Translations under genes and position numbers: made by a program
In this document: in pieces, positions 224 to 19,928 of the stretch
Layout of the letters: each line of letters opens with the position of its first letter
Position numbering within the stretch: the first letter of the stretch is position 1
Notes under the pieces: generated by a model
Seen by the model: the letters and a program-made list of their open reading frames with translations, nothing else
Databases searched by the model: none
Told to the model about the DNA's origin: nothing
IMG/VR virus record: IMGVR_UViG_3300033073_001074
Span: 1 to 64,000 of that record
Strand: one strand, 5' to 3'
Source of the DNA: a virus
Taxonomy: Duplodnaviria; Caudoviricetes
DNA: 64,000 nt

Positions 224-226
224 GAA

Positions 227-1228: not shown

Positions 1229-1245
1229 GAAATAAGGGTAGAAAT

Positions 1246-1521: not shown

Positions 1522-1532
1522 TCTCCTCTCAT

Positions 1533-1545: not shown

Positions 1546-1564
1546 GAGAAGGAGATTTTTTTCT

Positions 1565-2046: not shown

Positions 2047-2058
2047 TAGGAGGAAATA

Positions 2059-2835: not shown

Positions 2836-2836
2836 A

Positions 2837-3705: not shown

Positions 3706-3717
3706 GGGCATATAAAT

Positions 3718-3876: not shown

Positions 3877-4435
3877 GAAAAGAAAAGATCAAGATCCTAA
3901 AGCATTCATTTCTAATTGTATGGGTAATCCTACAATGAAGAAAGAATATCCAGATCAAAAGCAGCGAGTTGCAATTTGCATCCATCAAAGTAAAGCTGAA
4001 CACGATGTATTGTCTAAAGTAGATATGCATATGCAGTATGCTAATGCTGAATGGGATGATACTTGGAATGAATTTACATATGAGATCACTATTGCTGGTG
4101 GAGTTTTTTATGAAGACACAAGAGATAAAACTCTTGATGGAGAAACACCGCATGAAGGTCTTGGTAAAGACGAGAAGAGCAAAAAGGTAAAACTTAATAA
4201 ACCGTTCAGAACTCCGGGCGGACCAAAGAAGTTTTCTGTATATGTTAAGAATGAAAAGGGCAATGTTGTAAAAGTTAATTTTGGTGATCCAGATATGGAA
4301 ATCAAACGTGACGATCCTGAAAGAAGAAAGTCATATAGAGCCAGACATAATTGCGACAATCCCGGACCAAAATGGAAAGCTAACTATTGGTCATGTAAAA
4401 TGTGGAGTGGACAACCAGTAAGCAAACTAACATGA
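3863..4435 (+). CDS. hypothetical protein with two conserved phage micro-modules
   Basis: Start moved to ATG 3863; N-terminal MPLP...FISNCMGNPTMKKEYPDQKQRVAIC and C-terminal KLNKPFRT...KKFSVYVK...VNFGDP.M.I....RR.SYRARHNC...YWSC.MW. Confidence 0.7.
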   Translation: MPLPKKRKDQDPKAFISNCMGNPTMKKEYPDQKQRVAICIHQSKAEHDVLSKVDMHMQYANAEWDDTWNEFTYEITIAGGVFYEDTRDKTLDGETPHEGLGKDEKSKKVKLNKPFRTPGGPKKFSVYVKNEKGNVVKVNFGDPDMEIKRDDPERRKSYRARHNCDNPGPKWKANYWSCKMWSGQPVSKLT

Positions 4436-5031
4436 TTTCTATTATACTACCATATTTGACGGCAAATAAATGTATTGATCTATTTAGAAAAATTATTGCC
4501 GAAAATACGACCAATGAATATGAGATTATAGAGATAGCAGATCAAAAAGATGTATACGGTTCTTTTAACGAAGGAGCCAAATTAGCTAATGGAGATCTGC
4601 TTATCTTTATGAATGACGACATCTTTGTATCCAAAGGTTGGGATGAACTATATGTAAAATACGTAACAGGAAAAACAGTGGGAACTGGATATCTTGTCGA
4701 GCCGGGAGTAGCACCTGTTTCATATAAAAATGTAGAAAAGGATTTTGGAAGAACTCCAACGTCTTATAGGCATGAAGACTTTATGAATTGGTGTGACAAA
4801 GAAAAATGTAATGCTCCTGAAATATTGCAAGACACTAAAGGTTGGTATTTACCTATGGCTATTAAAAAAGAATTTTTTGTTGATTTTCCAAATGAGCAAA
4901 AATTTCCTCATCCAAACGATATTCTACTTGTTGATGACTTGCTTCCTAGCTTGGGTTATACCTTTATAAAGGTTGCATCTTTTGCTTATCATTTACAAGG
5001 ATACTCTCATATAAAAGATAATAGATCATGA
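4432..5031 (+). CDS. glycosyltransferase family 2
   Basis: Start ATG 4432 (ATGA overlap); ISIILP...YEII...SFNEGAKLANGDLLIFMNDDIFV GT-A fold with DxD-type motif. Confidence 0.8.
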   Translation: MISIILPYLTANKCIDLFRKIIAENTTNEYEIIEIADQKDVYGSFNEGAKLANGDLLIFMNDDIFVSKGWDELYVKYVTGKTVGTGYLVEPGVAPVSYKNVEKDFGRTPTSYRHEDFMNWCDKEKCNAPEILQDTKGWYLPMAIKKEFFVDFPNEQKFPHPNDILLVDDLLPSLGYTFIKVASFAYHLQGYSHIKDNRS

Positions 5032-6122
5032 AATACGATTTTCTTATTGTGGGATCTGGATTATTTGGGTCTGTATTTGCTAGACAAATGACCGATAAAG
5101 GCAAAAAATGTCTAGTGATAGACAAAAGATCTCACATTGGAGGAAATTGTTATACGGAAAACATTCACAATATAGAGGTCCATAAATATGGGCCTCATAT
5201 TTTTCATACTAACTCTAGAGAAATCTGGGATTATATAAATCAGTTTAGCGATTTCAGACAATTTATTTATAGGCCAAAAGTAAATTTTAAAGGACAGATA
5301 TACTCTTTTCCTATAAATTTATTTACTTTATATCAAGTCTATGGAGTAACTACTCCCGAAGATGCAAAAAACATTTTGGAAACAATATATAAAGAAAAAA
5401 TAGATAATCCTCAAAATTTAGAAGAGTATGCCATTAATGAAGTAGGTTTAGAACTTTATCATAAATTCATCTATGGTTATACAAAAAAACAATGGAATAG
5501 AGAACCAAGAGATTTGCCTAAATCAATAATTGCAAGATTGCCTGTTAGATTAAACTATGATGACAATTATTTTAATGATGAATATCAAGGCATTCCAAAA
5601 AACGGATATACTGAAATATTTAATAACTTATTAACATCAGTTGATACAGAAATAGGAGTTGATTATCTTAAAGATAGAGATAAGTTAGATAGCATGGCTA
5701 AGCGAATTGTATACACAGGACCAATCGATGAGTTTTTTAATTATCAATACGATGCTCTTGAATGGAGAAGTCTAAGATTTGAAGAAGAAATATTAGACAT
5801 TGAAGATTATCAAGGAACATATGTTATAAACTATACTGATTACAATATTCCATATACAAGAATATGTGAGCATAAACACTTCTTAAACAATAAATCAAAT
5901 AAAACAATTATAACAAAAGAATATCCTCAGAATTGGACAAAAGATAACGATAGATATTATCCAGTAAATGATAAAGAAAATATATATAGATATCTAAAAT
6001 ATAGAAACTTGATAGATGAAAATAAATATATTTTTGGCGGAAGATTAGCAGAATATAAATATTATGACATGCATCAAGTTATAGCTAGAGCTTTAAAAAT
6101 AGCCGGAGAAATAAATGATTGA
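5028..6122 (+). CDS. glf: UDP-galactopyranose mutase
   Basis: FAD-binding YDFLIVGSGLFGSVFA; HIGGNCYT; HKYGPHIFHT; YFNDEYQGIP; YYPVN; GRLAEYKYYDMHQVI. Confidence 0.95.
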   Translation: MKYDFLIVGSGLFGSVFARQMTDKGKKCLVIDKRSHIGGNCYTENIHNIEVHKYGPHIFHTNSREIWDYINQFSDFRQFIYRPKVNFKGQIYSFPINLFTLYQVYGVTTPEDAKNILETIYKEKIDNPQNLEEYAINEVGLELYHKFIYGYTKKQWNREPRDLPKSIIARLPVRLNYDDNYFNDEYQGIPKNGYTEIFNNLLTSVDTEIGVDYLKDRDKLDSMAKRIVYTGPIDEFFNYQYDALEWRSLRFEEEILDIEDYQGTYVINYTDYNIPYTRICEHKHFLNNKSNKTIITKEYPQNWTKDNDRYYPVNDKENIYRYLKYRNLIDENKYIFGGRLAEYKYYDMHQVIARALKIAGEIND

Positions 6123-6849
6123 TACAATTATACCCTTTTGTAGTTATGATTATAAATTTATTGATGCCACTATAGATGGTATTCGAGATGTAAGCAAAAA
6201 CATCATAGTAACATACTTTGACTATACTTTTGACGGTAAGCCGGAGAATTTAGAATTAATAAATCAAGTAAAGAATAGAAACACAGATTGTAAATTTATC
6301 CCCCTAGATTATGACTTTTCAGCTAATGCTAGATGGCATCATAATCAAACTCGATGGGTAGGACTTCAATTTTGTAAATCTGATTATGTACTATTTTTAG
6401 ATTCGGATGAAGTTTTTGAAAAGCAAAAAATAAAGCAGTGGTTAGATAGTAATATCGATACTTTAAAAGATGTAACAACATTTGCGAATTACTGGTATTT
6501 TAGATCACCCAAGTATAGAGCAAAAGTTATTGAAGATAGTCCTGTAATGATTAAAAAGGATATCGCTTCTTATGATTATATTTTTGATGATCTAGAACGT
6601 GCATCATTTAAGTACGCCGGAGATTTTTCAAAAAGTTTACAGGTTATGGGATTAGACGGGTTGCCAATGTGCCACCACTATAGCTGGGCCTTATCAAAAG
6701 AAGAAATGCTTAGAAAAGTAAGTTCATGGGGTCATAAGGGTGAAAAGAACTGGGAGCAGCTCATCAACGAAGAATTTTCAAGAGAATTTAATGGCAAAGA
6801 TTTTATTCATGAATACGAGTATGAAATATGCGAACCTTTGATCAAGTAA
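6115..6849 (+). CDS. glycosyltransferase family 2-like protein
   Basis: DYVLFLDSDEVF DxD motif; HHYSW...MLRKVSSWGH C-terminal motif. Confidence 0.7.
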   Translation: MIDTIIPFCSYDYKFIDATIDGIRDVSKNIIVTYFDYTFDGKPENLELINQVKNRNTDCKFIPLDYDFSANARWHHNQTRWVGLQFCKSDYVLFLDSDEVFEKQKIKQWLDSNIDTLKDVTTFANYWYFRSPKYRAKVIEDSPVMIKKDIASYDYIFDDLERASFKYAGDFSKSLQVMGLDGLPMCHHYSWALSKEEMLRKVSSWGHKGEKNWEQLINEEFSREFNGKDFIHEYEYEICEPLIK

Positions 6850-7520
6850 CCCTATTATGTATTGATACAAAGCAACCAATAGAAGCGTTGCTTGCCATGA
6901 TGCAATCTAAAAAGTCAATTGGTTTTGCAGCTTGCAAATTTTTAACAGATAAAGAAAAGCTAGAGCAAGTTCCAAACTTTGTATCAGGAATTGATATTAT
7001 CGACATTGGCAAGATTAATAATTTAGCAAGATATAATGAATTCTGTCTAAAAGAATTTGTAGAATATTTTGATACTGAATTTTGTCTAATGGTTCAACAC
7101 GATGGTTTTGTAGTTAGACCTCATCTTTGGTCTAATAAATTTTTTGAATATGACTATATTGGAGCGCCTTGGCCCGAAGAATGGGGATATTGTAATAGAG
7201 TGGGAAATGGTGGATTTAGTTTAAGATCTAAAAAGTTTGCCCAAAAGTGCAAAGATATATTTAATCATATTGATTTTCATTCTGAAGTTACAAGGGATAG
7301 GAATGATATCTCGATAAATGAAGATTTCTTATCTTGTGTTATTCATTTTGAAGAAATGAAATCTAATGGTATTAAGTTTGCTCCACCTGAATTAGCTGCA
7401 CTTTTTTCAACAGAACACTATGTAAAAGAAATGTTGCCAGAATCATTCGGATTTCACGATAAATTTACAGACTTTACAAAAGAGGCTATTCTTGAAAAGT
7501 ATATCAATCTCACTTTATAA
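6828..7520 (+). CDS. DUF5672-like putative glycosyltransferase
   Basis: CLMVQHDGFVV...FFEYDYIGAPW...VGNGGFSLRSKK...NEDFL...FAPPELAALFSTE...FGFH. Confidence 0.8.
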   Translation: MRTFDQVTLLCIDTKQPIEALLAMMQSKKSIGFAACKFLTDKEKLEQVPNFVSGIDIIDIGKINNLARYNEFCLKEFVEYFDTEFCLMVQHDGFVVRPHLWSNKFFEYDYIGAPWPEEWGYCNRVGNGGFSLRSKKFAQKCKDIFNHIDFHSEVTRDRNDISINEDFLSCVIHFEEMKSNGIKFAPPELAALFSTEHYVKEMLPESFGFHDKFTDFTKEAILEKYINLTL

Positions 7521-8211
7521 TCGACCAGAATATACAGCTAGACTATTTGATCATCTAAACAACTGTATTGGAGTTGATGAGTATAATTTTATTATTTGTG
7601 TGGAACCAGTAAACTCAGATGTAATCAATCTAGCAAAAAGTTTTCGACCCGCGCAATCCTCTCTAACAATTAATGAGGACAAACTGGGATGTCAAACCAA
7701 TATTTTTCAATCAGTCGCAAAAGGTTTTGAAATTAATAATGGATTCCATATTCATCTTGAAGATGATACGATTCCCGGAAAAGATTGTTTAAAATATTTT
7801 GAGTGGGCTGCTGAAAAATATAAAGATGACGAATCAGTATTCTCTATATCCGGGTATGTAAATTCAAATAATTTAATGGAAAATTGTTGCAATTCCAAAA
7901 CGGATGATATAATGCTAGTAGACAGACGTAAACATTTTACACCGTGGGGATGGGGAACATGGCTAAGCAGATGGAAAGAGATTAGAAAAGATTGGGACTT
8001 TGGATATAATAATGGTGGTTGGGATGTCAATATGGCAAAACGACTAAGGCAAGATAGATATGAAATTTATCCAATGGTTTCAAGAATTCAAAATATAGGT
8101 GCAAAAGATGGTATTCATGTAGAGTCAGAAGAGTGGCATAAGAAAAATCACTTCAATGAATACTGGATTGAATCTATCAATAAATATACTGAGGATTTCT
8201 ATGAGAGATAA
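7492..8211 (+). CDS. GT-A fold glycosyltransferase
   Basis: YNRPEYT; IHLEDDTIP; VFSISGY; FTPWGWGTWLSRW; SRIQNIG. Confidence 0.75.
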   Translation: MKSISISLYNRPEYTARLFDHLNNCIGVDEYNFIICVEPVNSDVINLAKSFRPAQSSLTINEDKLGCQTNIFQSVAKGFEINNGFHIHLEDDTIPGKDCLKYFEWAAEKYKDDESVFSISGYVNSNNLMENCCNSKTDDIMLVDRRKHFTPWGWGTWLSRWKEIRKDWDFGYNNGGWDVNMAKRLRQDRYEIYPMVSRIQNIGAKDGIHVESEEWHKKNHFNEYWIESINKYTEDFYER

Positions 8212-8782
8212 ATTAAATAAAATATTAGCAGTAACAAATAATGAATTAAATAATATAGACTATGGAAAATACACTTTAGTTACAGATAGGATATCTGGAT
8301 ATCAGGGGTATTTTTTCTTAGAGTCGGGCAAAGAGCATTATAGATTATTATCATATATATCAACACTGTATAACAATGAGGATATATTTGATATAGGAAC
8401 ATATAAAGGATTCTCAGCTCTTGCTTTAAGTCATAATCCAACAAATAAAGTTATATCATATGATATCTTAGAAGATAGTGATTTGTGGTATATTAAATAC
8501 TCACCCTTCTCTAGCAGCATAGAATATATGGTGGGCGACTGCACACTAGACGAACGACTACTGCAATCAAATTTTATTTCACTAGACACTGCTCATGATG
8601 GAGTATACGAAGAATATTTCTTGGGCTATCTTGCAAAAAATAATTGGCAAGGACTATTACTTATGGATGATATTCATGAATACCCCGCTTTGAAGAATAT
8701 ATGGCACTCAATAACCAAGGAAAAATATGATTTGACAAATAAGGGTCATTGGTCAGGAACTGGATTGGTGGTGTTTGAATGA
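8201..8782 (+). CDS. class I SAM-dependent methyltransferase
   Basis: Start moved to ATG 8201; IFDIGTYKGFSALAL...VISYDI...ISLDTAHDG...LLLMDDI. Confidence 0.75.
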   Translation: MRDKLNKILAVTNNELNNIDYGKYTLVTDRISGYQGYFFLESGKEHYRLLSYISTLYNNEDIFDIGTYKGFSALALSHNPTNKVISYDILEDSDLWYIKYSPFSSSIEYMVGDCTLDERLLQSNFISLDTAHDGVYEEYFLGYLAKNNWQGLLLMDDIHEYPALKNIWHSITKEKYDLTNKGHWSGTGLVVFE

Positions 8783-9417
8783 GATATTGGAAACCTTTAA
8801 AAATTGATAAGCCTGAAAAAATAAGAATTGTTGCCGCGTCATATTTTAATAATGATAAAAAAAGATTTTATGCTTCTAAATGTTTTATTAATTCAATATT
8901 AAATCAGACATATGATAATTTTGAACTTTTTATAGTTCATGATGGGCCAATTGATAAAACCGAAGAAGCCAAAGATTTTATTGCATCTATTAAAGATCCC
9001 AGAATTAAACTATTTGAAACTGAAAAAAGAGAAGGTAAATATGGATATCCCCACAGAAAAAAATACGCCTTTCTAAATGAAGATTTTGATTGGCTCATAT
9101 TTACAAATGATGACAATTATTATGTACCTGTTGCATTAGAAACTTTTTTGCATGGATGTCAAAAATTAGATAAAAAAATTATCTATTCTAATATGTTATC
9201 AAGTCATAAATTCTGGTTTCCTTTGATTACAGATTTTCAAAAAGAAAAACTAGACTTAGGTGGCTTTATGATTCATAAAGATATCATGAGAGACTATGGC
9301 TTTGTTTTATCAGAAAATAATTGTTTTGTAGCTGATGGTCTATTGATTAATCAGCTAAGATTAGATCATTCAGATAAGATAGTTAAACTAGATAATTTTC
9401 TTTATATACACAATTGA
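8779..9417 (+). CDS. glycosyltransferase family 2
   Basis: SILNQTYDNFELFIVHDGP...GKYGYPHR...WLIFTNDDNYYVP. Confidence 0.8.
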   Translation: MRYWKPLKIDKPEKIRIVAASYFNNDKKRFYASKCFINSILNQTYDNFELFIVHDGPIDKTEEAKDFIASIKDPRIKLFETEKREGKYGYPHRKKYAFLNEDFDWLIFTNDDNYYVPVALETFLHGCQKLDKKIIYSNMLSSHKFWFPLITDFQKEKLDLGGFMIHKDIMRDYGFVLSENNCFVADGLLINQLRLDHSDKIVKLDNFLYIHN

Positions 9418-9421
9418 GGTA

Positions 9422-9982
9422 ATGATGAATATAGTACAAGTTGGTGCAAATGCCGGTAATGACGATGCTTATAACTATATTATTAATAATATTCATAATA
9501 TAAATACAGTAGTATTGATAGAACCACTAGAAAAACATAATGAAATTTTAAAAGATCAGTATAGTTCTGTAGCTAATTTATATATAGAAAATATAGCAAT
9601 AGTAGATAATCCAGAATTATCCACAATTAGATTTTTTATAGCTCCAGAAGAAGGTCAGGTATCTGCTCTTGGATTGGATCATTTAGTTAAACACAACGTG
9701 CATTACACTCAGATTCAATCAGTAGAAATACCATGCTCCACTCTTAATAAAATATTTGACAAATACAATTTAATTGATATTGATTATCTTTTTATTGATG
9801 CAGAAGGATTTGATGATAAGATTATCACATCTATAGATTTTAATAAATACAATATATCAAAAATAGAATATGAAAACCTACATATTGATAATTCGAAATT
9901 AGAAATGTTTCTATCTAATTTAGGATATAAAATTACTCATGGAACCGGATATAATGGATGGTCTAACAGGGCAAGCAAATGA
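9422..9982 (+). CDS. FkbM family methyltransferase
   Basis: IVQVGANAG...VVLIEPL...IENIAI...STLNKIFDKYNLIDIDYLFIDAEGFD. Confidence 0.85.
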   Translation: MMNIVQVGANAGNDDAYNYIINNIHNINTVVLIEPLEKHNEILKDQYSSVANLYIENIAIVDNPELSTIRFFIAPEEGQVSALGLDHLVKHNVHYTQIQSVEIPCSTLNKIFDKYNLIDIDYLFIDAEGFDDKIITSIDFNKYNISKIEYENLHIDNSKLEMFLSNLGYKITHGTGYNGWSNRASK

Positions 9983-10695
9983 AAGTTGCATTAATCTGTA
10001 TAGCAAAAAATGAAGATAATTATATAGACGAATGGTTAAAATATCATAAAAAAATAGGTTTTGATAAAATATTCATATACGAGAATAATTGGAGATGCCC
10101 TCCAAATATAAATTATGATTTTGTGGAAAAAACAGAGTTTGACGGTGAAATCCAACAGATTCCGGCATATAATCATTTCATTTATTATAAATCTCATGAT
10201 TTTGATTGGGTGTGCTTTTTAGATGTGGATGAGTTCATAGTATTGAAACAACACTCAAACATCAAAGATTTCCTAAATAATTATAATCACTTAAAATGCA
10301 TAGCTCTAAATTGGTTATTTTTTGGAAATGATGATCTTAAATTTAACGGGGAATACTCATTAATAAAAAGATTTACCAAAAGACAAGCGGAACTCAATAA
10401 GCATATTAAATGTATATTTAAACCAAGTAAAAAAATAGGAATGAATATACATCAACCAAATATGTCATGGGTTGATATGGAAAACAATGAAGGCAATGGG
10501 CCGTTTTCAAATTGTAAAAATGATTCGGTGGCTTTTGTTGCGCATTTCTTTTGTAAAACGCCAGAAGAATTTAACGAAAAGATTAATAGAGGAAGAGCAG
10601 ATATGAATCGACCAAGATCACTAGAAGACTATACAGAAGGAAATAATAATATAGTCGAAGATTTATCAGTATATAATTTTATGTATGGTAACTAA
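9979..10695 (+). CDS. glycosyltransferase (GT2/GT92-like)
   Basis: ALICIAKNEDNYIDEWLKYHKKIGFDKIFIYENN...WVCFLDVDEFI...LNWLFFG. Confidence 0.8.
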   Translation: MKVALICIAKNEDNYIDEWLKYHKKIGFDKIFIYENNWRCPPNINYDFVEKTEFDGEIQQIPAYNHFIYYKSHDFDWVCFLDVDEFIVLKQHSNIKDFLNNYNHLKCIALNWLFFGNDDLKFNGEYSLIKRFTKRQAELNKHIKCIFKPSKKIGMNIHQPNMSWVDMENNEGNGPFSNCKNDSVAFVAHFFCKTPEEFNEKINRGRADMNRPRSLEDYTEGNNNIVEDLSVYNFMYGN

Positions 10696-10699
10696 ATTA

Positions 10700-10710
10700 G
10701 TGTATATAAT
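10700..10710 (+). promoter_or_regulatory. candidate phage-specific promoter motif GTGTATATAAT
   Basis: Intergenic, about 45 nt upstream of the next start; same core as 1533, 18220, 49462. Confidence 0.45.
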
Positions 10711-10752
10711 AATAGTTAAGCCACCCTTACCCTTAATCTAGGAGACTTGATA

Positions 10753-11187
10753 GTGAAAAAAGATTATTTCAAAGCAATGACAGAATATACAGAAGCAGAA
10801 AAGAAACCAGTAACAGATTTTGAAAAATATGTCCCAACTAAACCGGGACGCAAGCAAAATCTACACGAACACTATTTTACTGGTGATAAATCAGACGAAG
10901 ATCCAAATGAAAAAAATTCAATTCTTCCGGGTAAAGCCGAAGAAGATAAGGATAAGTGGAACGATATTCAAAAAAAAAAGGACAGTAATAAAATGAACGT
11001 GGTAGGCCCGCCTCCATTTTCTGATATTCCCGATGCGAGAATGACAACCATGTCTGGTGATAAACCGGGACTTTGGGAGAATATTCGTAAAAAGAAAGAA
11101 CGTGAAGGTAAAAATTACAAGCCTGCCAAGCCGGGCGATCCAGATCGTCCAGATCCTGAAGCATTGAAAAAAGCACAATCTTCATAA
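10753..11187 (+). CDS. charged hypothetical protein with a GLW.NIR.K phage module
   Basis: GGAG at 10741-10744 favours GTG 10753; K/D/P-rich; KPGLWENIRKKKEREGKNYKPAKPGDPDRP; contains an A10 run at 10970-10979. Confidence 0.65.
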   Translation: MKKDYFKAMTEYTEAEKKPVTDFEKYVPTKPGRKQNLHEHYFTGDKSDEDPNEKNSILPGKAEEDKDKWNDIQKKKDSNKMNVVGPPPFSDIPDARMTTMSGDKPGLWENIRKKKEREGKNYKPAKPGDPDRPDPEALKKAQSS

Positions 11188-11196
11188 AATCTTCAC

Positions 11197-11224
11197 TTGA
11201 CATCTGGGTGTCCGAAGGTATAAT
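11197..11224 (+). promoter_or_regulatory. sigma70 consensus promoter for the DUF1559 gene
   Basis: TTGACA(11197-11202), 16 nt, TATAAT(11219-11224), intergenic. Confidence 0.8.
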
Positions 11225-11233
11225 AATATTGTC

Positions 11234-11266
11234 GAGGGGCGGCGAATGGAGTCGCCCTTCTTATTT
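11234..11266 (+). other. GC-rich stem-loop at the predicted 5' end of the DUF1559 mRNA
   Basis: GAGGGGCGGC / GTCGCCCTTC 10-bp stem (2 G-U pairs), loop GAATGGA, followed by TTATTT. Confidence 0.55.
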
Positions 11267-11289
11267 GAAAGAACTATGAGAGAGAAAAA

Positions 11290-12387
11290 ATGAAGAATCA
11301 AAAGAAAGCCTTTACCCTGATCGAACTGTTGGTTGTCATCGCAATTATTGCGGTGCTAATTTCCCTTCTGCTCCCTGCCGTACAATCTGCCCGTGAAGCC
11401 GCTCGTCGCTCACAATGTACAAATAACCTGAAGCAAGTTGGATTAGCTGCACACAATTTTGAAAGCATTAGAGGTACTTTTCCAAGATCGGGCGAACATA
11501 ATTTGCCAGTAAATTCGCAAATGTATAAAACGCAAGATTTTCATAGTGCATTTACTATGATCCTAGCGACTATTGAACAAGGCAATGCCTACAATCAGTT
11601 TAACCTACAAATTCCATATAATTTTGCAGGTAATGCAACTGTAAGTTCAACGGTAATTAGCACATTTCTTTGTCCAACAAATGCCCTTGAGTCAGACAGA
11701 AACAGTGGCAAAGATAGCATTGGCTTTGGATGTATTGACTATGCAACAGCGCCTTACACCGAAATCATGCCTAATGGCACAACTAAGTGGCAAGCTGGTT
11801 ATGTCGCTCCAGTTCCAGAACCCGGAGCTTTAACAGGAACATCATATGCGGTTTCAGCTTACGCTCAATATAATTGTAATGGATGCTCGTCATCTAAGAC
11901 ATATCAAATTGACCCAGCAAAAGTTCTATCTGGAGCAGTTGATGTTTTCCAAGGGGTTCCCATTTCTGCAATCACAGACGGCACTTCGAATACTGCAATG
12001 TTTTATGAGGATACTGGTCGATCTTCAAGAATGCAAGGTAATGGTAATTACGCAGCCCCACCAACCGATTATTTGCCCGACTTGAATGCTCCAGCACCTT
12101 ATGTTCAAGGCGCTCGTCGCTCATGGAGATGGGGCGATCCTGACAATGCCGCTGGTGTTTCAAGTGGAGTTAACAATAATAAGACCGCTGGATTTGGAGC
12201 TGGTTGTGATTGGGGTGTTCATGATTGCGGCCCAAATAATGAGATTTTCTCATGGCATCCGGGTGGAGCTAATGTTTGTATGAGTGATGGATCTGTACGA
12301 TTTATTAAAGAAAGTACTGCAACGTCAGTTATTCGATCTTTAATTACTCGTGCTGGCGGCGAAGTGATTTCCGCAGATTCCTATTGA
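11290..12387 (+). CDS. DUF1559 domain protein with prepilin-type N-terminal cleavage/methylation site and H-X9-DG motif
   Basis: [53 protein letters not shown] at the N-terminus; [20 protein letters not shown] at the C-terminus. Confidence 0.93.
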
Positions 12388-12412
12388 CAAATAATGCACT
12401 CAGTGCTATAAT
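12384..12412 (+). promoter_or_regulatory. perfect extended sigma70 promoter overlapping the DUF1559 stop codon
   Basis: TTGACA(12384-12389, contains the TGA stop), 17 nt, TATAAT(12407-12412), TG at 12404-12405; the spacer holds the palindrome GCACT-C-AGTGC. Confidence 0.85.
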
Positions 12413-12417
12413 AAAAG

Positions 12418-12444
12418 GAGCCGCCCCATTTCGGGTGGCTCTTT
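12418..12444 (+). terminator. intrinsic terminator-like hairpin after DUF1559 (also the 5' hairpin of the next transcript)
   Basis: GAGCCGCCC / GGGTGGCTC stem, loop CATTTC, only a short T tract. Confidence 0.55.
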
Positions 12445-12465
12445 CCGCATATACAGAGGTAAATA

Positions 12466-12837
12466 ATGATTGATTTCTTAAAACAAGATGAAATTTTTGT
12501 CTTTGGTAGCAATATTCAAGGACGACATGGTGCAGGAGCAGCTAAGCAAGCTATGCAATGGGGCGCAATTTATGGTAAGCCATCTGGTAGGCAGGGTCAA
12601 ACATACGCTATCATAACAAAAGATCTCAGGGATAATTCATTTGTAGGCTGGGATTTTGTCAGAGAACAACTGGCAATATTGATGAAGTACGCGCATATAA
12701 ATGATGATCTTACTTTTTTGCTAACTCCTATTGGAACTGGTCTTGCTGGTCAAACAATTGAAGACTTGGAGCATAATATTAGAGATTTTTACTTTCCAGA
12801 TAATATTATAAAGATATGGGAAAATGATAATGATTGA
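12466..12837 (+). CDS. A1S_2505-like phage non-structural protein (possible macro-like fold)
   Basis: EIFVFGSNIQGRHGAGAAKQA..WGAIYG...GRQGQTYAIIT...FLLTPIGTGLAG. Confidence 0.7.
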   Translation: MIDFLKQDEIFVFGSNIQGRHGAGAAKQAMQWGAIYGKPSGRQGQTYAIITKDLRDNSFVGWDFVREQLAILMKYAHINDDLTFLLTPIGTGLAGQTIEDLEHNIRDFYFPDNIIKIWENDND

Positions 12838-13027
12838 ATATGTACCAATCAGAATAGCAAAAACAACTCAGCAAATCCTAAGAGAAGTTTATAAAGATAT
12901 AGATATAAATGAATCTCGATTATCTTTAATTGAAAGAAGTTTACTTGGATTGCCACCAGAAAATCACAAAGATATACTAGATCAAATTTTTGAGGAATAT
13001 AATAATGCTACTACAAGCTCCAATTAA
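12824..13027 (+). CDS. hypothetical protein
   Basis: 67 aa ORF overlapping both neighbours in operon style. Confidence 0.55.
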   Translation: MIMIEYVPIRIAKTTQQILREVYKDIDINESRLSLIERSLLGLPPENHKDILDQIFEEYNNATTSSN

Positions 13028-14069
13028 CAGCTTAGGATATGGTGTTGCGGGATATAATATTGCAAAACAATTAGGAAAGAAGAAGGGTGTTGAAGACTTT
13101 ACTCTTTTTCCCATTGGTCAACCTGAACCAGAACTGTATGAAGAACTATTAAAATATGACTGGCGAAATAAAGAAGAAGAATTAAGTTTATCTGATATAT
13201 GCTTGAAAATTTGGCATCAAAATGGATTACATGAGATGGCTGGAAGAGGAGTTCGAATCGGTTTTCCTATTTTTGAACTCAACAGTTTTACAAATGAAGA
13301 AGAGTTAAGTATTAGTAGTTGTGATGGAATATTTGTTTGCTCAGAGTGGGCTAAGGCAGTTATTGCACATGAAACAAGAATAAATTATCATTGTATTAAA
13401 GTTGTTCCACTTGGAGTTGACCGTTCTATCTTCAACGAGAATAACAATGTAAAACGCCCAGCTACAATCTTCTTTAATTGTGGTAAATGGGAAGTTCGCA
13501 AAGGTCACGATATCATCAAAGAATGTTTTGAAAAGGCGTTTAGCCAAAATGATAATGTTGAACTTTGGATGATGTGCGAAAATCCATTCCTAGGTGAAAA
13601 AAATAACGATTGGATTAATTATTACAGGTCTTCCAGTCTTGCAAATAAAATCCGTTTCATCCCAAGACAAAAAAGTCAGCGGGATGTGTATAATATTATG
13701 AGACAAGTTGATGTTGGAGTTTTTCCAGTTAGAGCAGAAGGTTGGAATTTAGAGCTTCTTGAACTGCTATCGTGTGGTAAACATGTAATTACTACAGATT
13801 ATTCTGGTCACACAGAATTTACAAATAGAAAAAATGCAAGAATCATTAATACTGGTAAGTTAGAACCTGCTCATGATGGCATATGGTTTCATGGTCAAGG
13901 CAATTGGGCTAAACTTGGCGACCCACAAAAGGATCAACTTATTACTCATATGAGAGAACTTCATCAACAAAAGAAAGATAGTGAATTGGATATTAATTTA
14001 GCAGGAATTGAAACTGGTATTAAATTTTCTTGGGAAAATACGGCAGAGGAGATATTAAATGGGCTTTGA
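13005..14069 (+). CDS. glycosyltransferase family 4 (GT-B)
   Basis: Start moved to ATG 13005; GKWEVRKGHDII; EGWNLELLE EX7E signature; ITTDYSGHTEF. Confidence 0.85.
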   Translation: MLLQAPINSLGYGVAGYNIAKQLGKKKGVEDFTLFPIGQPEPELYEELLKYDWRNKEEELSLSDICLKIWHQNGLHEMAGRGVRIGFPIFELNSFTNEEELSISSCDGIFVCSEWAKAVIAHETRINYHCIKVVPLGVDRSIFNENNNVKRPATIFFNCGKWEVRKGHDIIKECFEKAFSQNDNVELWMMCENPFLGEKNNDWINYYRSSSLANKIRFIPRQKSQRDVYNIMRQVDVGVFPVRAEGWNLELLELLSCGKHVITTDYSGHTEFTNRKNARIINTGKLEPAHDGIWFHGQGNWAKLGDPQKDQLITHMRELHQQKKDSELDINLAGIETGIKFSWENTAEEILNGL

Positions 14070-14988
14070 AACACCAGAAGATATTCTAAAAGAATATGAA
14101 AATGGATTACAGGCGGCTGTGTGTAATGCTGTAGACATGGCTAGGCTTATGGAAGAACTGCCAAGACCTTTGTTTGGCGCAATTGGTAATGAATTATATG
14201 GAACAGGGAAAGGCTCTTTAGCTTTGCCTTATAAGGCGATACAGTATTTCTTTCCTAGTTTTGGTGCAGATGAATCGCAAACTACAGGCGATTGCGTATC
14301 ACATGCAACACGTAATGCGGTTGATGTAACAAGATGTTATGAAATTCTTTACGGGGGAGAAAAGGAATCCTTTATCGCTAGAGGTGCTACTGAGCCAATT
14401 TATGGTTGTCGTGGACATGGTGGACAGGGCATGGAATGTTCACAAGCTGCTAGATTTGTTAGTCTAACTGGTGGATTTTTAGCAAGACAAAAATATGATA
14501 CGATTGATCTATCGATTTACGATTCAAGAATTGGAACCGCATGGGGTAGTAGAGGCATTCCACAGGCAGTTATTAATCAGTGTAAAGAGCATAAAATAGA
14601 AACAGTAACCACTGTTACAACTATTGAGCAAGCTAGGGATCTTCTGGCAAATGGTTATGCTTTATCAGTTTGCTCAGATTATGGATTCTCTAGTGTCAGA
14701 GATAAATACGGTATTGCAGATCCAAGAGGTTCATGGTCACATGCTATGGCATGGATTGGATGCGATGATACCCACGAAAGATTAAATGAAACTTTATTTC
14801 TTGTTCAAAATAGCTGGGGAGTTTGGAACTCTGGACCAAAATATTATGAGCAACCAGATGGAAGTTTTTGGATTCGTCAAAGCGTAGCTGAAAGAATGAT
14901 TGCTTCCGGAGCAGCTTTTGCTTATAGTAGATTCAAAGGCTTCGTCCGTAAGATGGATTGGACTAGAATTAAGGAGGTATATGCATGA
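14059..14988 (+). CDS. papain-like cysteine peptidase (C1-like)
   Basis: SQTTGDCVSH (oxyanion Q and catalytic C), WSHAMAWIG (H), LVQNSWG (N), DGSFWI. Confidence 0.8.
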   Translation: MGFETPEDILKEYENGLQAAVCNAVDMARLMEELPRPLFGAIGNELYGTGKGSLALPYKAIQYFFPSFGADESQTTGDCVSHATRNAVDVTRCYEILYGGEKESFIARGATEPIYGCRGHGGQGMECSQAARFVSLTGGFLARQKYDTIDLSIYDSRIGTAWGSRGIPQAVINQCKEHKIETVTTVTTIEQARDLLANGYALSVCSDYGFSSVRDKYGIADPRGSWSHAMAWIGCDDTHERLNETLFLVQNSWGVWNSGPKYYEQPDGSFWIRQSVAERMIASGAAFAYSRFKGFVRKMDWTRIKEVYA

Positions 14989-15326
14989 AAAAATCAATAG
15001 CTTTAGCGGTATATTTGTTTGGAGCTTTGAGTTGTTTGCTATATTTAGATTATAAATCAAATCAACAAGAAGTTCAACTCTACGGATCAAGAAATGTAGA
15101 AGCAGAACTTAAGATAAATGTTGATAGAGCAAATCTAGTTCTTGACACTGTAGAGAAAAAATATATCAAAAAGGAGGTTGCTCCAAAACCTAAGCCAGAG
15201 CCAAATGTGTGTAAATGTAATGGCACAGGTTATATTTTACAGCCAGATGGTAATAAAAGTCAATGTCAATGCGCTTCAACTCCTGAAGGATGCAAGTGTC
15301 AACCAAAGACAGAGGTTCCACAATGA
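14985..15326 (+). CDS. membrane-anchored protein with Cys-rich C-terminus
   Basis: N-terminal hydrophobic helix; CKCNGTGYILQPDGNKSQCQC...CKC. Confidence 0.65.
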   Translation: MKKSIALAVYLFGALSCLLYLDYKSNQQEVQLYGSRNVEAELKINVDRANLVLDTVEKKYIKKEVAPKPKPEPNVCKCNGTGYILQPDGNKSQCQCASTPEGCKCQPKTEVPQ

Positions 15327-15667
15327 GCGATATTGAAGAATTTGCACAGAATGTTGCCGCAGATCTTCCAAATGAAGATGGAAAATACGCATTTGATTTA
15401 GGATTAATAATTATAATAGGCTCAATTATAGTCAATGTGCTTCAATTATTAATGAAGTGTAATGTGTTTGGTAGAAAGTTAGAAGATAGGGCTAAAAATC
15501 CCGGCCCAATCGATCAAATTCTTTTAAGTAGAGCTATTAAAAAAGAATTACCACAAGAGTATGCTCATTTGAGGGATGATATTAAACAAGTTATCTTAAC
15601 AAAAATTCAATCTTTACCGACTGAAAAAATAAACAATATGGCTAAGGAGGCAAAAAATGCTGGATAA
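15323..15667 (+). CDS. hypothetical membrane protein
   Basis: Start ATG 15323 (ATGA overlap); TM segment LGLIIIIGSIIVNVLQLL. Confidence 0.65.
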   Translation: MSDIEEFAQNVAADLPNEDGKYAFDLGLIIIIGSIIVNVLQLLMKCNVFGRKLEDRAKNPGPIDQILLSRAIKKELPQEYAHLRDDIKQVILTKIQSLPTEKINNMAKEAKNAG

Positions 15668-15851
15668 ATTTAAGAATTTAACAAAGTCGCGTCGTTTTTG
15701 GGTTACGATTTCAACAGTAGTTGTTGTTGTTGCAAAAGAAGCTGGAATTGCTGATCTTGATCCAGCTCAGGTACAAAATATTGTTATTCTTGCAGCAACT
15801 TGGGTTTTAGGTGAATCATTACGATCTTCTGAAGGTCCGGTGACACAATGA
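15657..15851 (+). CDS. holin-like two-TM protein
   Basis: 64 aa; KSRRFWVTISTVVVVV...IVILAATWVLGE; an SRKFW-like N-terminus is typical of small holins. Confidence 0.5.
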   Translation: MLDKFKNLTKSRRFWVTISTVVVVVAKEAGIADLDPAQVQNIVILAATWVLGESLRSSEGPVTQ

Positions 15852-16138
15852 GTACTGCTCAGATTATCTTGGTTGCAATTGGATTATTGATTGTGATATC
15901 TTCGATTGATTTCAAATCACTATTCTCTTCTCTTAAAGAAAAAGAGACAACAGGTTATATTCCAGTTGCACCAAATCCGCCAGTGCAAGTTGCCATCGTT
16001 GATCCTAAAAATGATTTAGTTTCACTTGTGCAAAAATGGCAAGCCTTGAAGGATGCTTGTGATAAAAATAAACTAACAGAAGCATCAACAAAATTAGATG
16101 ACATATTTCCAATGTTGATTAAGGTGCAAAAATCATGA
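15848..16138 (+). CDS. membrane-anchored hypothetical protein
   Basis: N-terminal TM QIILVAIGLLIVISSI; ATGA coupling. Confidence 0.65.
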   Translation: MSTAQIILVAIGLLIVISSIDFKSLFSSLKEKETTGYIPVAPNPPVQVAIVDPKNDLVSLVQKWQALKDACDKNKLTEASTKLDDIFPMLIKVQKS

Positions 16139-16605
16139 CAAAAACCCAAAGACTATTTTTTGGTCTTGGTTTAGTATTTCTTGCATTTTTGATTGATTAT
16201 ATTCCTGTAAATAACAATCAAAAAATTGATAATGAATACGCAAAGTACTTGACATTAACCAAGCCAAGTGATACAATATATCAAGAAGTCAAAGACGTTA
16301 AATCAATTGTATCTGGCCCAGACGAAGTTTTTGATAGAGAGCTTATTGCTATATTCAATAATGAAATGGCAAAAAGACTTGAAACCTACAATGGAGTAAA
16401 TACACTAGCATTTGAAAACTATTATTATGATGCTGGAAAAATGTACTTCGAAGGTAGAATAGCAAAAAAATATGCTGGACTAGGAGATAAGCTATATCAA
16501 ATCATCCTGTCAACACTAGGTGATAATGAGACAGTCATCTCAAAAGATGAATTTGCAAAATTATCTGAAAAGATGAAGGGTATAGCTTGGGTCTTACTGA
16601 ATTGA
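16135..16605 (+). CDS. membrane-anchored hypothetical protein
   Basis: N-terminal TM LFFGLGLVFLAFLI; ATGA coupling. Confidence 0.65.
   Translation: MTKTQRLFFGLGLVFLAFLIDYIPVNNNQKIDNEYAKYLTLTKPSDTIYQEVKDVKSIVSGPDEVFDRELIAIFNNEMAKRLETYNGVNTLAFENYYYDAGKMYFEGRIAKKYAGLGDKLYQIILSTLGDNETVISKDEFAKLSEKMKGIAWVLLN
16249..16277 (+). promoter_or_regulatory. near-consensus sigma70 promoter inside a CDS
   Basis: TTGACA(16249-16254), 17 nt, TACAAT(16272-16277), TG at 16269-16270. Confidence 0.45.
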
Positions 16606-16613
16606 AATAATAG

Positions 16614-16635
16614 TGGGGGCTTCGGCCCCCATTTT
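16614..16635 (+). terminator. intrinsic terminator with UUCG tetraloop
   Basis: TGGGGGC-TTCG-GCCCCCA followed by TTTT. Confidence 0.85.
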
Positions 16636-16647
16636 AAGAGGTTGAAA

Positions 16648-17040
16648 ATGAAACAAGTAAAGTATTATACAAAAATATCACTTATACCGATTTTAACAGA
16701 TAAAAAGCATCATCAGTTATCGCCAGACTATAGAAAAATATTAGTAGATAACGATAAGAAAATCATATCAAAATATTTATCCACAGAAAAAACAATAGAA
16801 GTTCTGTTACGAGATTTGTATAAAGAATATTTGAGATATGATTATGACTGGAGTTTCAAAACTATATCATCAGCAAGAAAAGTAAATACTGAAATCGAAA
16901 TCTGTTATATCGCTCATATGCCATTTATAGATGGATTTAATAAATCGGGCACTATTATTAATATAAATGATCTACATGCTTTAGAGGATAAATATTATGG
17001 TCAAATCGCCACCTTCACAACCCCAGAATTCTTTAGATGA
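16648..17040 (+). CDS. hypothetical protein
   Basis: GAGG at 16638-16641 favours ATG 16648. Confidence 0.6.
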   Translation: MKQVKYYTKISLIPILTDKKHHQLSPDYRKILVDNDKKIISKYLSTEKTIEVLLRDLYKEYLRYDYDWSFKTISSARKVNTEIEICYIAHMPFIDGFNKSGTIININDLHALEDKYYGQIATFTTPEFFR

Positions 17041-17332
17041 AGACGCACCATTCGCTCCGAAATCATTCATTATATTCTGTTTGGACGAAGATGGGAATAT
17101 AGCTTTTGAGGCTTCTTGGGGAGAAACCACTGAAGATATCAAAAAATTTGCCACACTCTTGAAGAAAGTATCCTCTGGAGATTTTGATACGATGATACTA
17201 GAGCAGCTCAAAAACCAATCTAAAAATATTGAAGACGGTGCTAAAAAGTTTGCATTATTCAGCAAAAGTTTTAAAGAGTTAAATAAACCTTCCAATGTAG
17301 TTATAGATCCGACAGAAGTGGAGCTAAACTAA
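16997..17332 (+). CDS. hypothetical protein
   Basis: 111 aa ORF, TAATG coupling to the next gene. Confidence 0.6.
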   Translation: MVKSPPSQPQNSLDEDAPFAPKSFIIFCLDEDGNIAFEASWGETTEDIKKFATLLKKVSSGDFDTMILEQLKNQSKNIEDGAKKFALFSKSFKELNKPSNVVIDPTEVELN

Positions 17333-17748
17333 TGAAAAAAGTAATGTGGGAAAACTGGAATGAGAAAGAAAAAGAACTCTTTGACACATCATTTCAAGAT
17401 CAGTATTTATTAGATACAGCAGAAGAAGAAGATGAGCAAATATTATCAATGGCAAATAAAGATGATGGACATTTATTTCCACCAATTATTGACATGCAAC
17501 CACAAGTAATTCATACTCCATTCGGAGTTGTTCCATCAGATTCTATTTTAAAACCATCAGACAGATGGGAATGCTGGCTAGCGTATACTAATTTTGATCT
17601 TACTCATAAAATATCAGATAGAATTAAAATCATTAATGGAGTAGAAGCTCTTAAAATGATGAGTAGGTATACATTTTGTGTGGGTATTGGAAAACTGTTT
17701 AATCATACAAGAGTGAAGAAGGAAATTGAGGATGCAATCTGCAAATAA
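17332..17748 (+). CDS. hypothetical protein
   Basis: 138 aa ORF, operon-style overlaps. Confidence 0.65.
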   Translation: MKKVMWENWNEKEKELFDTSFQDQYLLDTAEEEDEQILSMANKDDGHLFPPIIDMQPQVIHTPFGVVPSDSILKPSDRWECWLAYTNFDLTHKISDRIKIINGVEALKMMSRYTFCVGIGKLFNHTRVKKEIEDAICK

Positions 17749-18250
17749 AAAGTTTAATGACGCATATAACAATGAATACTACAAAAAGATCATGAATAAA
17801 GTTTGTAAGGAGAATTTGAGGGGCGTGTGTTCAAAAGACGAAATTAAATCTTTGATGATGAGTACGTTGTGGAGCTGTATTGAAAAATTCGATAACAAGA
17901 AGAATGTCAAATTCTCATCTTACCTATATCGGAGTATGCAAAATAATTCTCGAAGAATTTATAAAAAGAAAGTCAAACAGTTTAATGAGGTATCTTTAAT
18001 TGAGAATTACCACTCTTCTCTTTTTGTAGATTTTGAAGCAAAAGAAGAGGCTAGAGATATTTTGATGTCAGTTCTGGATAAAAATCCTGAGCTACATGAT
18101 ATTTTAATCAAGAAATATTATTACGGTATGACCAATAAAGAAATCGGTGAGGCTAATGGGTATGGAAAAGAAGCAGCAAGAAAAAAACTTAAAAAAGCGA
18201 TAGAATTGTGTCGCCAAATTGTGTATACTAATGTAGGAACAGGAACATAA
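17732..18250 (+). CDS. phage sigma-70 family RNA polymerase sigma factor (regions 2 and 4)
   Basis: Start ATG 17732 after GAGG; LWSCIEKFDNKKNVKFSSYLY (region 2) and YYYGMTNKEIGEANGYGKEAARKKLKKAI (region 4 HTH). Confidence 0.8.
   Translation: MQSANKKFNDAYNNEYYKKIMNKVCKENLRGVCSKDEIKSLMMSTLWSCIEKFDNKKNVKFSSYLYRSMQNNSRRIYKKKVKQFNEVSLIENYHSSLFVDFEAKEEARDILMSVLDKNPELHDILIKKYYYGMTNKEIGEANGYGKEAARKKLKKAIELCRQIVYTNVGTGT
18220..18232 (+). promoter_or_regulatory. candidate phage-specific promoter motif TGTGTATACTAAT
   Basis: At the 3' end of the sigma gene, about 80 nt upstream of the 18310 gene. Confidence 0.45.
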
Positions 18251-18309
18251 ATAGCTTAGGACAATAGGAAAGTAAGATTAGCAACCATATAAAGTGAGGT
18301 AACAAAGCT

Positions 18310-18948
18310 ATGGTTCCAAATCAGTCAGTAAATCCATACTTAAAGAATACCGCTGGAAGTACCTTTACAAAGCAAACTTTTGGTGGTACAATTATCGGTT
18401 TGTCTTCAGCAACATCAATTATCACCAAGGCGATTCAAGTTAAGGATGTTAATGCTAGTGATCCTACCATTTACACATATCCTAAGCTATTGTCTGGCGC
18501 AAGAACATATAACACAGCTAAGATTCTTTCTTCTGGCACATTCGCATACAATGCTGCTATCAACAGAACATGGATCTTGACTCGTGTAACAACATCACTT
18601 GCTGGTGTTTCCAAGACATTCCTTCAATTCATGGCAAACGTTGGATATGCTCCTTCTATCGCTTACTATGTACGTGATAACTGGGTCGATACAACTAGCT
18701 TGATCCGTAAGATGCAACTTAGCTTCACAGGCTATGACGCATCTGGGGGCGGATATGCCAACAAGATTCAAGCAAGAACACCGTGGATCACAAGTCCAAC
18801 GGGAACTGCTGGATCTGACTTCGGCACATCAAATTCTCTTCCGACAAGAGCTTATCCGGGCGAATTGTACATCTTGAATAACTTCGTAGATTACAATCCA
18901 GCTACAAGCTCAAACAAATACTATTACAAACCAATTACCGGCAAGTAA
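18310..18948 (+). CDS. S/T/G/Y-rich hypothetical protein, possibly virion structural
   Basis: GAGG RBS; composition poor in acidic residues; own candidate promoter and terminator. Confidence 0.6.
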   Translation: MVPNQSVNPYLKNTAGSTFTKQTFGGTIIGLSSATSIITKAIQVKDVNASDPTIYTYPKLLSGARTYNTAKILSSGTFAYNAAINRTWILTRVTTSLAGVSKTFLQFMANVGYAPSIAYYVRDNWVDTTSLIRKMQLSFTGYDASGGGYANKIQARTPWITSPTGTAGSDFGTSNSLPTRAYPGELYILNNFVDYNPATSSNKYYYKPITGK

Positions 18949-18965
18949 TTTGTATCAATAAAATG

Positions 18966-18995
18966 GGGGCCGGGTTTTGCCCGGCTCCTTTTTTT
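18966..18995 (+). terminator. intrinsic terminator
   Basis: GGGGCCGGG-TTTTG-CCCGGCTCC followed by T7. Confidence 0.85.
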
Positions 18996-19013
18996 ATAAC
19001 GGGGGGTGATATT

Positions 19014-19406
19014 ATGACAATGGCATGGCATGAAGTTTTACCAGCGATTGGTGATTTTATTAATAAAACAGGATTTCCCATAGCTTTATGGGTAATAGCT
19101 GGAATGGCATTTTATAAAGTATTTAAGAAGTTTTTTCATAAACTTGAGCCAATCATTGATGCACACTTTGAGTTAGTAACTGAATTAAAAAACAGCTCAG
19201 GAAGAACTGCTGATATCTTAGAGAAACAAAATGAGATATTAGCCACAAAATTAGATGAGCATACGTCTATACTTACAGATCATACATCGAAATTAGACAA
19301 GATTATGAAAATTAATATTGAACGAAATGAAATTCTTGAAGAAACTAAAAGTGTAATACCTTTGACAAACGGACTTTTAGGAGCTGGAAATGGGATTAAG
19401 CGATAA
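19014..19406 (+). CDS. membrane protein with coiled-coil tail
   Basis: Start moved to ATG 19014 (the track start lies in the terminator); TM GFPIALWVIAGMAFY. Confidence 0.65.
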   Translation: MTMAWHEVLPAIGDFINKTGFPIALWVIAGMAFYKVFKKFFHKLEPIIDAHFELVTELKNSSGRTADILEKQNEILATKLDEHTSILTDHTSKLDKIMKINIERNEILEETKSVIPLTNGLLGAGNGIKR

Positions 19407-19909: not shown

Positions 19910-19928
19910 GAGGACAGGAAATTCTAAG

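Follow-up and report, generated by a model that had tools for sequence, protein, structure and literature searches.

The stretch of DNA considered here, called the window below, comprises bases 1-64,000 of a 75,574-bp IMG/VR virus record (IMGVR_UViG_3300033073_001074, labelled G000) with a CheckV completeness of ~50%. Its subject is a gene for a DUF1559 (SBP_bac_10) prepilin-type protein, which stands behind a consensus promoter and a hairpin, is followed by a second hairpin and is preceded by a short direct repeat resembling a Pho box. The features of this locus are listed in Table 1. In the labels used, G001 is a complete relative of the phage, G005-G009, G069 and G070 are genomes of the predicted host genus, and L numbers are contigs or loci.

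Table 1. Features at the DUF1559 locus, in window positions
Feature	Position	Strand	Basis
Pho-box-like direct repeat TCTTCAT-AAAA-TCTTCAC (TCTTCATAAAATCTTCAC), two 7-nt half-sites	11179-11196	+	pattern and matrix
Sigma-70-type promoter TTGACA-N16-TATAAT (-35 at 11197-11202, -10 at 11219-11224)	11197-11224	+	12/12 consensus positions
G+C-rich 5′ hairpin, 10-bp stem, then CTTCTTATTT	11234-11260	+	-19.2 kcal/mol, z -2.6
Purine-rich ribosome-binding stretch GAGAGAGA before ATG	11278-11285	+	read from the sequence; GAGAGAAAA in relatives
DUF1559/SBP_bac_10 prepilin-type protein, 365 amino acids	11290-12387	+	family matches, AlphaFold2 model, nonsynonymous to synonymous substitution ratio (dN/dS)
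Second perfect promoter TTGACA-N17-TATAAT, for gene 12466-12837	12384-12412	+	consensus match
Downstream hairpin, 12-bp stem	12415-12444	+	-21.2 kcal/mol, z -3.1

The DUF1559 protein and its expression cassette

By every sequence criterion, the phage protein is a full member of the DUF1559 family. An earlier note on this DNA had described a complete DUF1559 protein with a prepilin signal, Glu at +5 and a C-terminal H-X9-DG motif, and profile searches match this description. The Pfam family SBP_bac_10/DUF1559 (PF07596) aligns with residues 32-344 (E=3.4e-43; 149.1 bits, cut-off 23.3) over positions 1-266 of the 268 in the model. N_methyl (PF07963; E=4.7e-8, 32.7 bits) and TIGR02532 (27.3 bits) are also matched, as is the H-X9-DG model TIGR04294 at residues 320-340 (E=6.5e-11; 41.6 bits, cut-off 19). 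The leader, MKNQKKA/FTLIE, has Glu at +5 and an Ala at -1 that is common to the bacterial orthologues. This leader (residues 1-7) is followed by an alpha-1 helix (~10-61), an expanded globular part and the H-X9-DG motif at 323-334. The phage protein retains all 58 columns that are invariant among 38 aligned sequences, H323, D333 and G334 included.

The AlphaFold2 model (predicted local distance difference test score, pLDDT, 75.6) consists of a ~50-residue N-terminal helix (10-61) plus beta-sheets. In structural alignment the solved chains reached at Z >=2 are type IV pilins or pseudopilins without exception (16/16), with a best Z of only 4.0. Foldseek against the PDB gave no match at E<=0.001, and the matches of a PDB sequence search are confined to the N-terminal helix. 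The sole match in PHROGs is likewise short and N-terminal (phrog_27437, function unknown). The G+C-rich 5′ end of the gene pointed out in the earlier note was recounted as 32/60 at 11341-11400. This is the conserved stretch coding for the alpha-1 helix, and the first 150 nt of the gene share 71-83% nucleotide identity with dozens of host paralogues, which explains the elevated G+C of the 5′ end.

The promoter TTGACA-16-TATAAT, the 5′ hairpin and the downstream hairpin of the earlier description were all found in place, and the promoter, a sigma-70-type element belonging to the gene itself, has a perfect consensus. The 64 kb contain only four perfect consensus promoters, where 0.16 would be expected, and in 100 shuffles four were never reached. 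Two of these four (11197 and 12384) flank the DUF1559 gene. The promoter hexamers are invariant in six relatives, while the spacer differs in both sequence and length. The 5′ hairpin holds the same position in relatives with different stem sequences, which indicates that the changes are compensatory. This hairpin may stabilise the mRNA or attenuate transcription.

The -35 hexamer of the second promoter overlaps the DUF1559 stop codon; this promoter is present in relatives of the L002 type and degenerate in those of the L005 type. In relatives, T8 follows the equivalent of the downstream hairpin, the form expected of a classical terminator. The downstream hairpin is likely to end the DUF1559 transcript and also to form the 5′ structure of the transcript that comes after it. 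Of the 69 promoter-like sites of the window, only the two that flank the DUF1559 gene combine a perfect promoter with a strong hairpin within ~10 nt. The DUF1559 coding sequence alone appears to resemble host DNA, and the promoter and hairpins appear to be of phage type.

The remaining perfect sites, both TTGACA-N17-TATAAT, lie at 49449-49477 (-) and 942-970 (+), and no hairpin follows either. The first is intergenic, ahead of a minus-strand structural block, and the second lies inside the open reading frame (ORF) 227-1228.

A comparable arrangement has been described for the PeSL promoter/stem-loop cassettes of T4-type phages (PMC2839356, PMC4122927). The repeated ~100-bp element that borders a PeSL cassette on both sides was not found here, as units 11197-11260 and 12384-12444 share the hexamers only. 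A further difference is that the stem-loop follows the -10 element, whereas in PeSL it precedes or overlaps the promoter.

Gene slot, origin and predicted host

A protein 73-80% identical to that of the window is encoded by 14 other IMG/VR contigs, which come from different samples. The gene occupies the identical slot, with the same junctions, in 14/14 of them. A homologue of 10747-11187 lies upstream, and downstream follow 12466-12837, a glycosyltransferase family 4 (GT4) gene, 14059-14988 and further genes up to ribonucleotide reductase. Conservation of the DUF1559 gene equals that of the surrounding core genes (34%-91% identity). The complete relative G001 (155,259 bp, CheckV 100%) encodes a large terminase, a portal protein and RIIA. 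No match to the DUF1559 gene was obtained by tblastn against 50,697 deposited phage genomes, in keeping with the statement of the earlier note that no characterised phage copy was known.

All phage copies of the gene are intact. Within the closest subclade dN/dS is 0.017-0.069 at dS 0.17-0.59, and between subclades the synonymous sites are saturated, from which it follows that the gene is fixed and anciently held in the phage lineage. The earlier note had named neutral decay and a misassembled host chunk as the findings that would overturn it; the first is contradicted by these ratios and the second by the shared slot. The wider notion of an artefact, that the gene is a misassembled host fragment, host contamination or a decaying passenger, could draw on a gene G+C (0.43) above the phage average (0.35). 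It is exceedingly improbable, given the recurrence of the same junctions in 14 viral contigs and one complete genome, the intact copies with dN/dS of 0.02-0.07, a nucleotide identity to the host of only 64-67% and a G+C far below that of any bacterial copy (0.51-0.61).

In a subclade represented by L002, an inserted endonuclease gene separates the 5′ hairpin from the DUF1559 gene, and the repeat, promoter and hairpin ahead of it are all kept. The inserted gene encodes a homing endonuclease of HNH/endonuclease VII type (phrog_3322, E=1.4e-25; L002:3047-3805) and is also found in L003, L004 and L010. After the insertion, the DUF1559 gene of this subclade begins with GTG. The last ~60 codons of such an endonuclease gene are retained in L177, in what resembles an insertion-deletion scar. 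The gene downstream, ORF 12466-12837 (+), encodes 123 amino acids with 75% identity in all relatives. It matches phrog_2072 (function unknown) and, weakly, a 'phosphatase' PHROG (E=6.9e-5), and it has its own perfect promoter (Table 1).

The database search returned a tight group at 66-99% identity, followed by a gap to Isosphaeraceae paralogues at <=55%. The closest homologues from cultured bacteria are those of the Tautonia/Paludisphaera group (53-54% identity). Part of the tight group is bacterial, on contigs of 22-114 kb with a G+C of 0.49-0.61 that carry genes for NAD synthase, nitrilase and other cellular functions. The genus concerned is one GTDB genus of freshwater Planctomycetota, placed by NCBI in Isosphaeraceae or Planctomycetaceae. 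A single orthologue at 72-76% identity is present in seven of its eight species representatives, and outside the genus the best identity is 58% (61 genomes sampled from the family). The five host metagenome-assembled genomes (MAGs) surveyed contain 56-82 DUF1559 paralogues each.

A maximum-likelihood tree unites the phage copies in a single clade (100/98; monophyletic in 200/200 bootstrap trees), which is nested within the clade of the genus (100/100). The G+C of the gene, 0.41-0.45 across the phages, compares with 0.32-0.36 for the phage genomes and 0.51-0.61 for the bacterial copies. When DNA of window positions 1-20000 was searched against the genus, only the coding sequence matched among the matches listed, at 64-67% identity; no spacer-like match outside the coding sequence was among them. 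As judged from the tree, the gene was acquired once by an ancestor of this phage lineage from the host genus, and this genus is the predicted host of the phage. The phage G+C lies 15-25 points below that of the genus (0.49-0.61), an unusually large gap for a phage-host pair.

Of the host-derived moron proposed in the earlier note, the host origin holds, with a phage clade inside the bacterial orthologues and an intermediate G+C. The moron part does not: the promoter/terminator architecture would fit a moron in the lambdoid sense, but the gene is found in the same place in all 14 related contigs. Its presence in all relatives means that it is neither currently shuffled nor sporadic, unlike PeSL or moron genes.

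A second low-G+C (0.37) element, which has a ParB-like gene, carries a 66%-identical copy (L021:4639-5766, L022:2181-3308). This copy joins a different, pst-linked branch of that orthogroup (100/99), evidence of a separate capture, although its own branch is long.

Peptidase_A24 and T2SSE ATPase genes are absent from the five phage records searched (one complete), each of which has one N_methyl gene and no further pilin. The five host MAGs encode 1-3 A24 peptidases and 6-10 T2SSE ATPases each. As the phage has neither prepilin peptidase nor assembly ATPases, the DUF1559 product would have to rely on those of the host.

The direct repeat and the phosphate genes of the host genus

In two species of the host genus (G007, G008) the orthologue heads the pst locus: a PBP_like_2 gene and two BPD_transp_1 genes (pstS, pstC, pstA) come after it on its own strand, at a distance of 47-88 nt. 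In G009 the gene ahead of the orthologue codes for a PF04185 phosphoesterase fused to a beta-propeller. A 55%-identical paralogue adjoins PhoU_div and PHO4.

Both the orthologues and the phage genes are preceded by 7-nt direct repeats with an 11-bp period, TCTTCAY-N4-TNTTNAY. The pattern TCTTCAYNNNNTNTTNAY has 36 matches in eight host genomes, against 10 for the reversed control. In G005, G009 and G070 the repeat stands ahead of an alpha/beta-hydrolase gene, the first gene of the single pst operon; G006 has it there with one mismatch. An identical site is present in G069, where pstS was not found. Intergenic matches also precede phytase-like genes (G006, G008) and DUF1559 orthologues (G069, G070).

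A first matrix was built from four pst sites alone. It finds its top site of the phytase-like locus at -238 to -273 in 7/7 species, in the same orientation and with 14.9-26.8 bits. The phytase-like gene has the motif in common with the orthologue but does not adjoin it. It also finds sites at -153 to -183 before the orthologues of all seven species, of which three are strong (one of them inverted) and four weak. In three species, the gene for the best PhoB-like response regulator lies downstream of pstS at a distance of 3-4 kb; that of G005 is at C25:75479-76147. The repeat is taken to be the Pho box of this genus, presumably bound by the PhoB-like regulator of the pst locus. Comparative genomics suggests that the orthologue belongs to the phosphate-starvation gene set of the host.

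The order at the host pst locus (G005:C25:75479-81138, G009:C33:58745-64404, G006:C36; L147, L170) is repeat, secreted alpha/beta-hydrolase, pstS, pstC, pstA, further genes and the PhoB-like regulator. It is unusual for a pst operon to begin with a hydrolase gene. A PhoX (PF05787) query found nothing in the host genus.

At the phage gene, the repeat directly adjoins the -35 hexamer. It overlaps the stop codon of the gene before it and is the only match to the pattern in the window. A second matrix, made from six host sites (four pst, two phytase) and including no DUF1559 or phage sites, ranks 11179-11196 first of the 151,114 positions in the record, with 19.3 bits; the runner-up has 11.2. In G001 the corresponding position is first of 310,484 (18.8 vs 14.3 bits), and the equivalent repeat is top-scoring in the locus of every relative. 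The half-sites stay constant where the 4-nt spacer and the promoter spacer vary, and even where a different gene lies upstream, and a 144-kb relative, L177, keeps the repeat. In L178, a more divergent lineage with another genomic context, three phased repeats replace the -35 element, which is the arrangement of classical PhoB-dependent promoters. For the independently captured copy of L021/L022, the top-scoring site lies 83 nt upstream; it is inverted and part of an imperfect palindrome.

The phage also has a phoH gene at 23745-24449 (+) (PF02562, E=2e-65), which was found in 4/4 relatives searched. No Pho-box-like site was found near this gene, and a search for pstS in five phage records (one complete) found none.

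A proposed role in phosphorus acquisition and its alternatives

On a slight balance of probability, the DUF1559 gene is explained as a Pho-regulon pseudopilin-like auxiliary gene, whose product would be processed and assembled by the host and which, probably tuned by host PhoB, would aid phosphorus scavenging. Host RNA polymerase would transcribe the gene from its consensus promoter, and host PhoB would raise transcription further in a phosphate-starved infected cell. The product would enter the inner membrane, lose its leader to the host prepilin peptidase and become part of the host type II secretion or type IV pilus-like apparatus, as the host protein is presumed to do. A phosphate-scavenging function would be kept up or boosted in this way while host gene expression declines. 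Candidate functions are the export of phosphoesterases, such as the phytase-like enzyme, and the capture or transfer of phosphate compounds toward PstS. The phosphorus gained would feed replication of the 155-kb genome.

The gene would then be a counterpart of cyanophage pstS/phoA under host PhoBR control. Cyanophage pstS is described as being under such control (PMC10976474, citing Zeng and Chisholm 2012). As far as that account goes, the two cases are alike in that a host-derived phosphate-starvation gene in a lytic phage is preceded by a host Pho-box-type motif. They are also alike, on the same account, in that the gene is presumed to sustain phosphorus acquisition during infection; the phage examined here has phoH as well. 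They differ in the cargo, which here is a pilin-like envelope protein and not a phosphate-binding protein or phosphatase. Other differences are the planctomycete host, the lack of a detected pstS, the derivation of the regulation from comparative genomics and the position of the motif upstream of an intact -35 element.

Several points weigh against this explanation. The orthologue adjoins pst in only 2/7 species, and the motif before it is weak (7.7-11.8 bits) in 4/7 and inverted in one. Phage and orthologue sequences had a part in defining the pattern; tests independent of them come from the pst sites, the phytase sites and the leave-out matrices. With both hexamers perfect, the phage promoter should need no activator to fire. 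Compared with classical PhoB promoters, the repeat is displaced upstream by one more helical turn, and it could be a relic. The matches to the pilin fold are weak (Z 4.0 or less), and we know of no biochemical role for any DUF1559 protein. Predicted Pho boxes partly failed experimental test in a cyanophage, the one system tested (PMC10976474). The other phage groups of DUF1559 genes, described below, are without the motif, so that the phosphate reading may not generalise.

The perfect promoter, the weak motifs, the pst adjacency in only 2/7 species and the partial failure of Pho-box predictions elsewhere also favour a reading in which the phage copy supplements the envelope function of the host orthologue with no tie to phosphate, and the repeat binds another regulator or is a relic. 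This is rather unlikely. The motif precedes the single pst operon in four species, in addition to the identical site in G069, and the single phytase-like gene in 7/7; pst operons and phytases are classic targets of a Pho regulon. Nor does this reading account for half-sites that stay the same across the phage clade despite changes in the spacers and the flanking gene, or for the three phased repeats that replace the -35 element in L178.

Surface-fibre remodelling has also to be considered. The phage subunit would here be built into, or poison, the receptor pili or pseudopili of the host, leading to superinfection exclusion or altered adhesion, perhaps helped by the neighbouring glycosyltransferases. 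The pilin-type leader and fold, the glycosyltransferase genes that flank the DUF1559 gene and the strong, constitutive-looking promoter are all consistent with it. It has a precedent in haloarchaeal provirus SNJ2, whose pilins use the host assembly machinery, form the dominant surface filaments, act as receptor for another virus and change receptor display (PMC12426801). The use of host machinery by viral pilins is a precedent for the phosphorus-scavenging reading as well. As in SNJ2, a viral pilin-type gene is present without a viral peptidase or ATPase, and those of the host are needed. SNJ2 is archaeal and temperate, whereas the phage examined here is bacterial and, by its RIIA, of lytic type; its protein is pseudopilin-like, with a 300-amino-acid globular part, and has a phosphate context.

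Other evidence makes fibre remodelling a doubtful choice. The phage stem branch is not long, and there is none of the acceleration, truncation or loss of invariant residues that a dominant-negative subunit might show. The conserved residues and the ordinary branch appear to fit a retained host-protein function better than a poison subunit. The glycosylation island upstream varies while the DUF1559 cassette is constant among relatives, and the conserved Pho-box-like repeat is left unexplained, as is the double capture of a pst-linked orthogroup from among 56-82 paralogues. Superinfection exclusion in particular, which the earlier note had suggested, found no specific support.

The island in question, of glycosyltransferase and methyltransferase genes, occupies window positions 4400-10700. 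Its gene content differs from that of L002-L015, and the genomes are collinear downstream of 11179, which places the cassette at the edge of a variable region.

For the phosphorus-scavenging reading, the Hxc system of Pseudomonas aeruginosa is a precedent. This is a phosphate-starvation-induced type II secretion system with its own pseudopilins, which exports the phosphatase LapA; a Pho-regulon pseudopilin there serves phosphoesterase export. Hxc is a complete dedicated secretion operon, whereas the gene considered here is a single pseudopilin-like gene for which no dedicated machinery was identified.

DUF1559 is, to our knowledge, the largest paralogue family of Planctomycetota, and no member has a known function. 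The phage gene differs from its planctomycete relatives in being phage-encoded, lower in G+C and placed behind a promoter/hairpin unit of phage type. In Planctopirus limnophila there are 68 DUF1559 paralogues, of which two are essential (PMC10632474). The literature found on DUF1559 contained nothing on phages or phosphate, and no publication joining Planctomycetes, phosphate limitation and prepilins was found. The Pho link of the phage DUF1559 gene is new.

A broader proposal can be put forward only tentatively. The DUF1559 orthogroup may be the envelope-spanning arm of high-affinity phosphate acquisition in planctomycetes. As a subunit of a pseudopilus it would supply PstSCAB, by capturing phosphate compounds or by exporting phosphoesterases, and phages would carry it under the host PhoB switch to raise their phosphorus supply. 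If true, a function would be assigned for the first time in this largest planctomycete paralogue family, and a new class of phosphorus auxiliary genes would be known outside cyanophages. The orthogroup is tied to pst and to the Pho-box-like motif by operon linkage, a shared cis-element and two separate captures by low-G+C elements. These ties give a functional hypothesis for DUF1559 that is testable in genetically tractable planctomycetes. The phosphorus-scavenging reading would extend host-regulated phosphate auxiliary genes from marine cyanophages to freshwater phages of heterotrophs, and auxiliary cargo from transport and enzyme genes to an envelope-fibre subunit. It is accompanied by a genus-level host prediction for an uncultured lineage of ~150-kb phages.

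DUF1559 genes are not confined to this phage lineage. A profile search of IMG/VR found them on ~45 further low-G+C (0.29-0.40) viral contigs, at 24-34% identity and in at least nine groups. Many of these contigs are distant relatives of the present phage, with replication genes shared at 30-55% identity. No Pho-box-like motif was found upstream of the other phage DUF1559 groups; a high-scoring match in L050/L051 lies inside an ORF and was rejected as a false positive. One group is 57-60% identical to other bacterial paralogues, some of them on contigs of 0.4-2.4 Mb, and 32% identical to the gene of the window. That the groups match different bacterial paralogues indicates that these were captured independently. 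Such repeated acquisition of different paralogue groups by related phages could also fit the receptor-related selection expected under fibre remodelling.

In the distant relatives the gene sits at other places than in the present phage, for example between the halves of the split DNA polymerase III alpha gene, between homologues of 33720-34541 and 34538-35569, or elsewhere among the replication genes. Contigs of this kind are L069, L073-L075 and L091-L093 (~6001-7000), L086/L087 and L094. On the bacterial side, the DUF1559 genes related to the phage copies often have as neighbours secreted beta-propeller proteins (choice_anch_I, E=1e-89; phosphoesterase fusion) and also a protein of ~140 amino acids that weakly resembles a carboxypeptidase-regulatory domain; such neighbours are at L161:7078-8805, L024:7150-9729 and L160:7041-7454.

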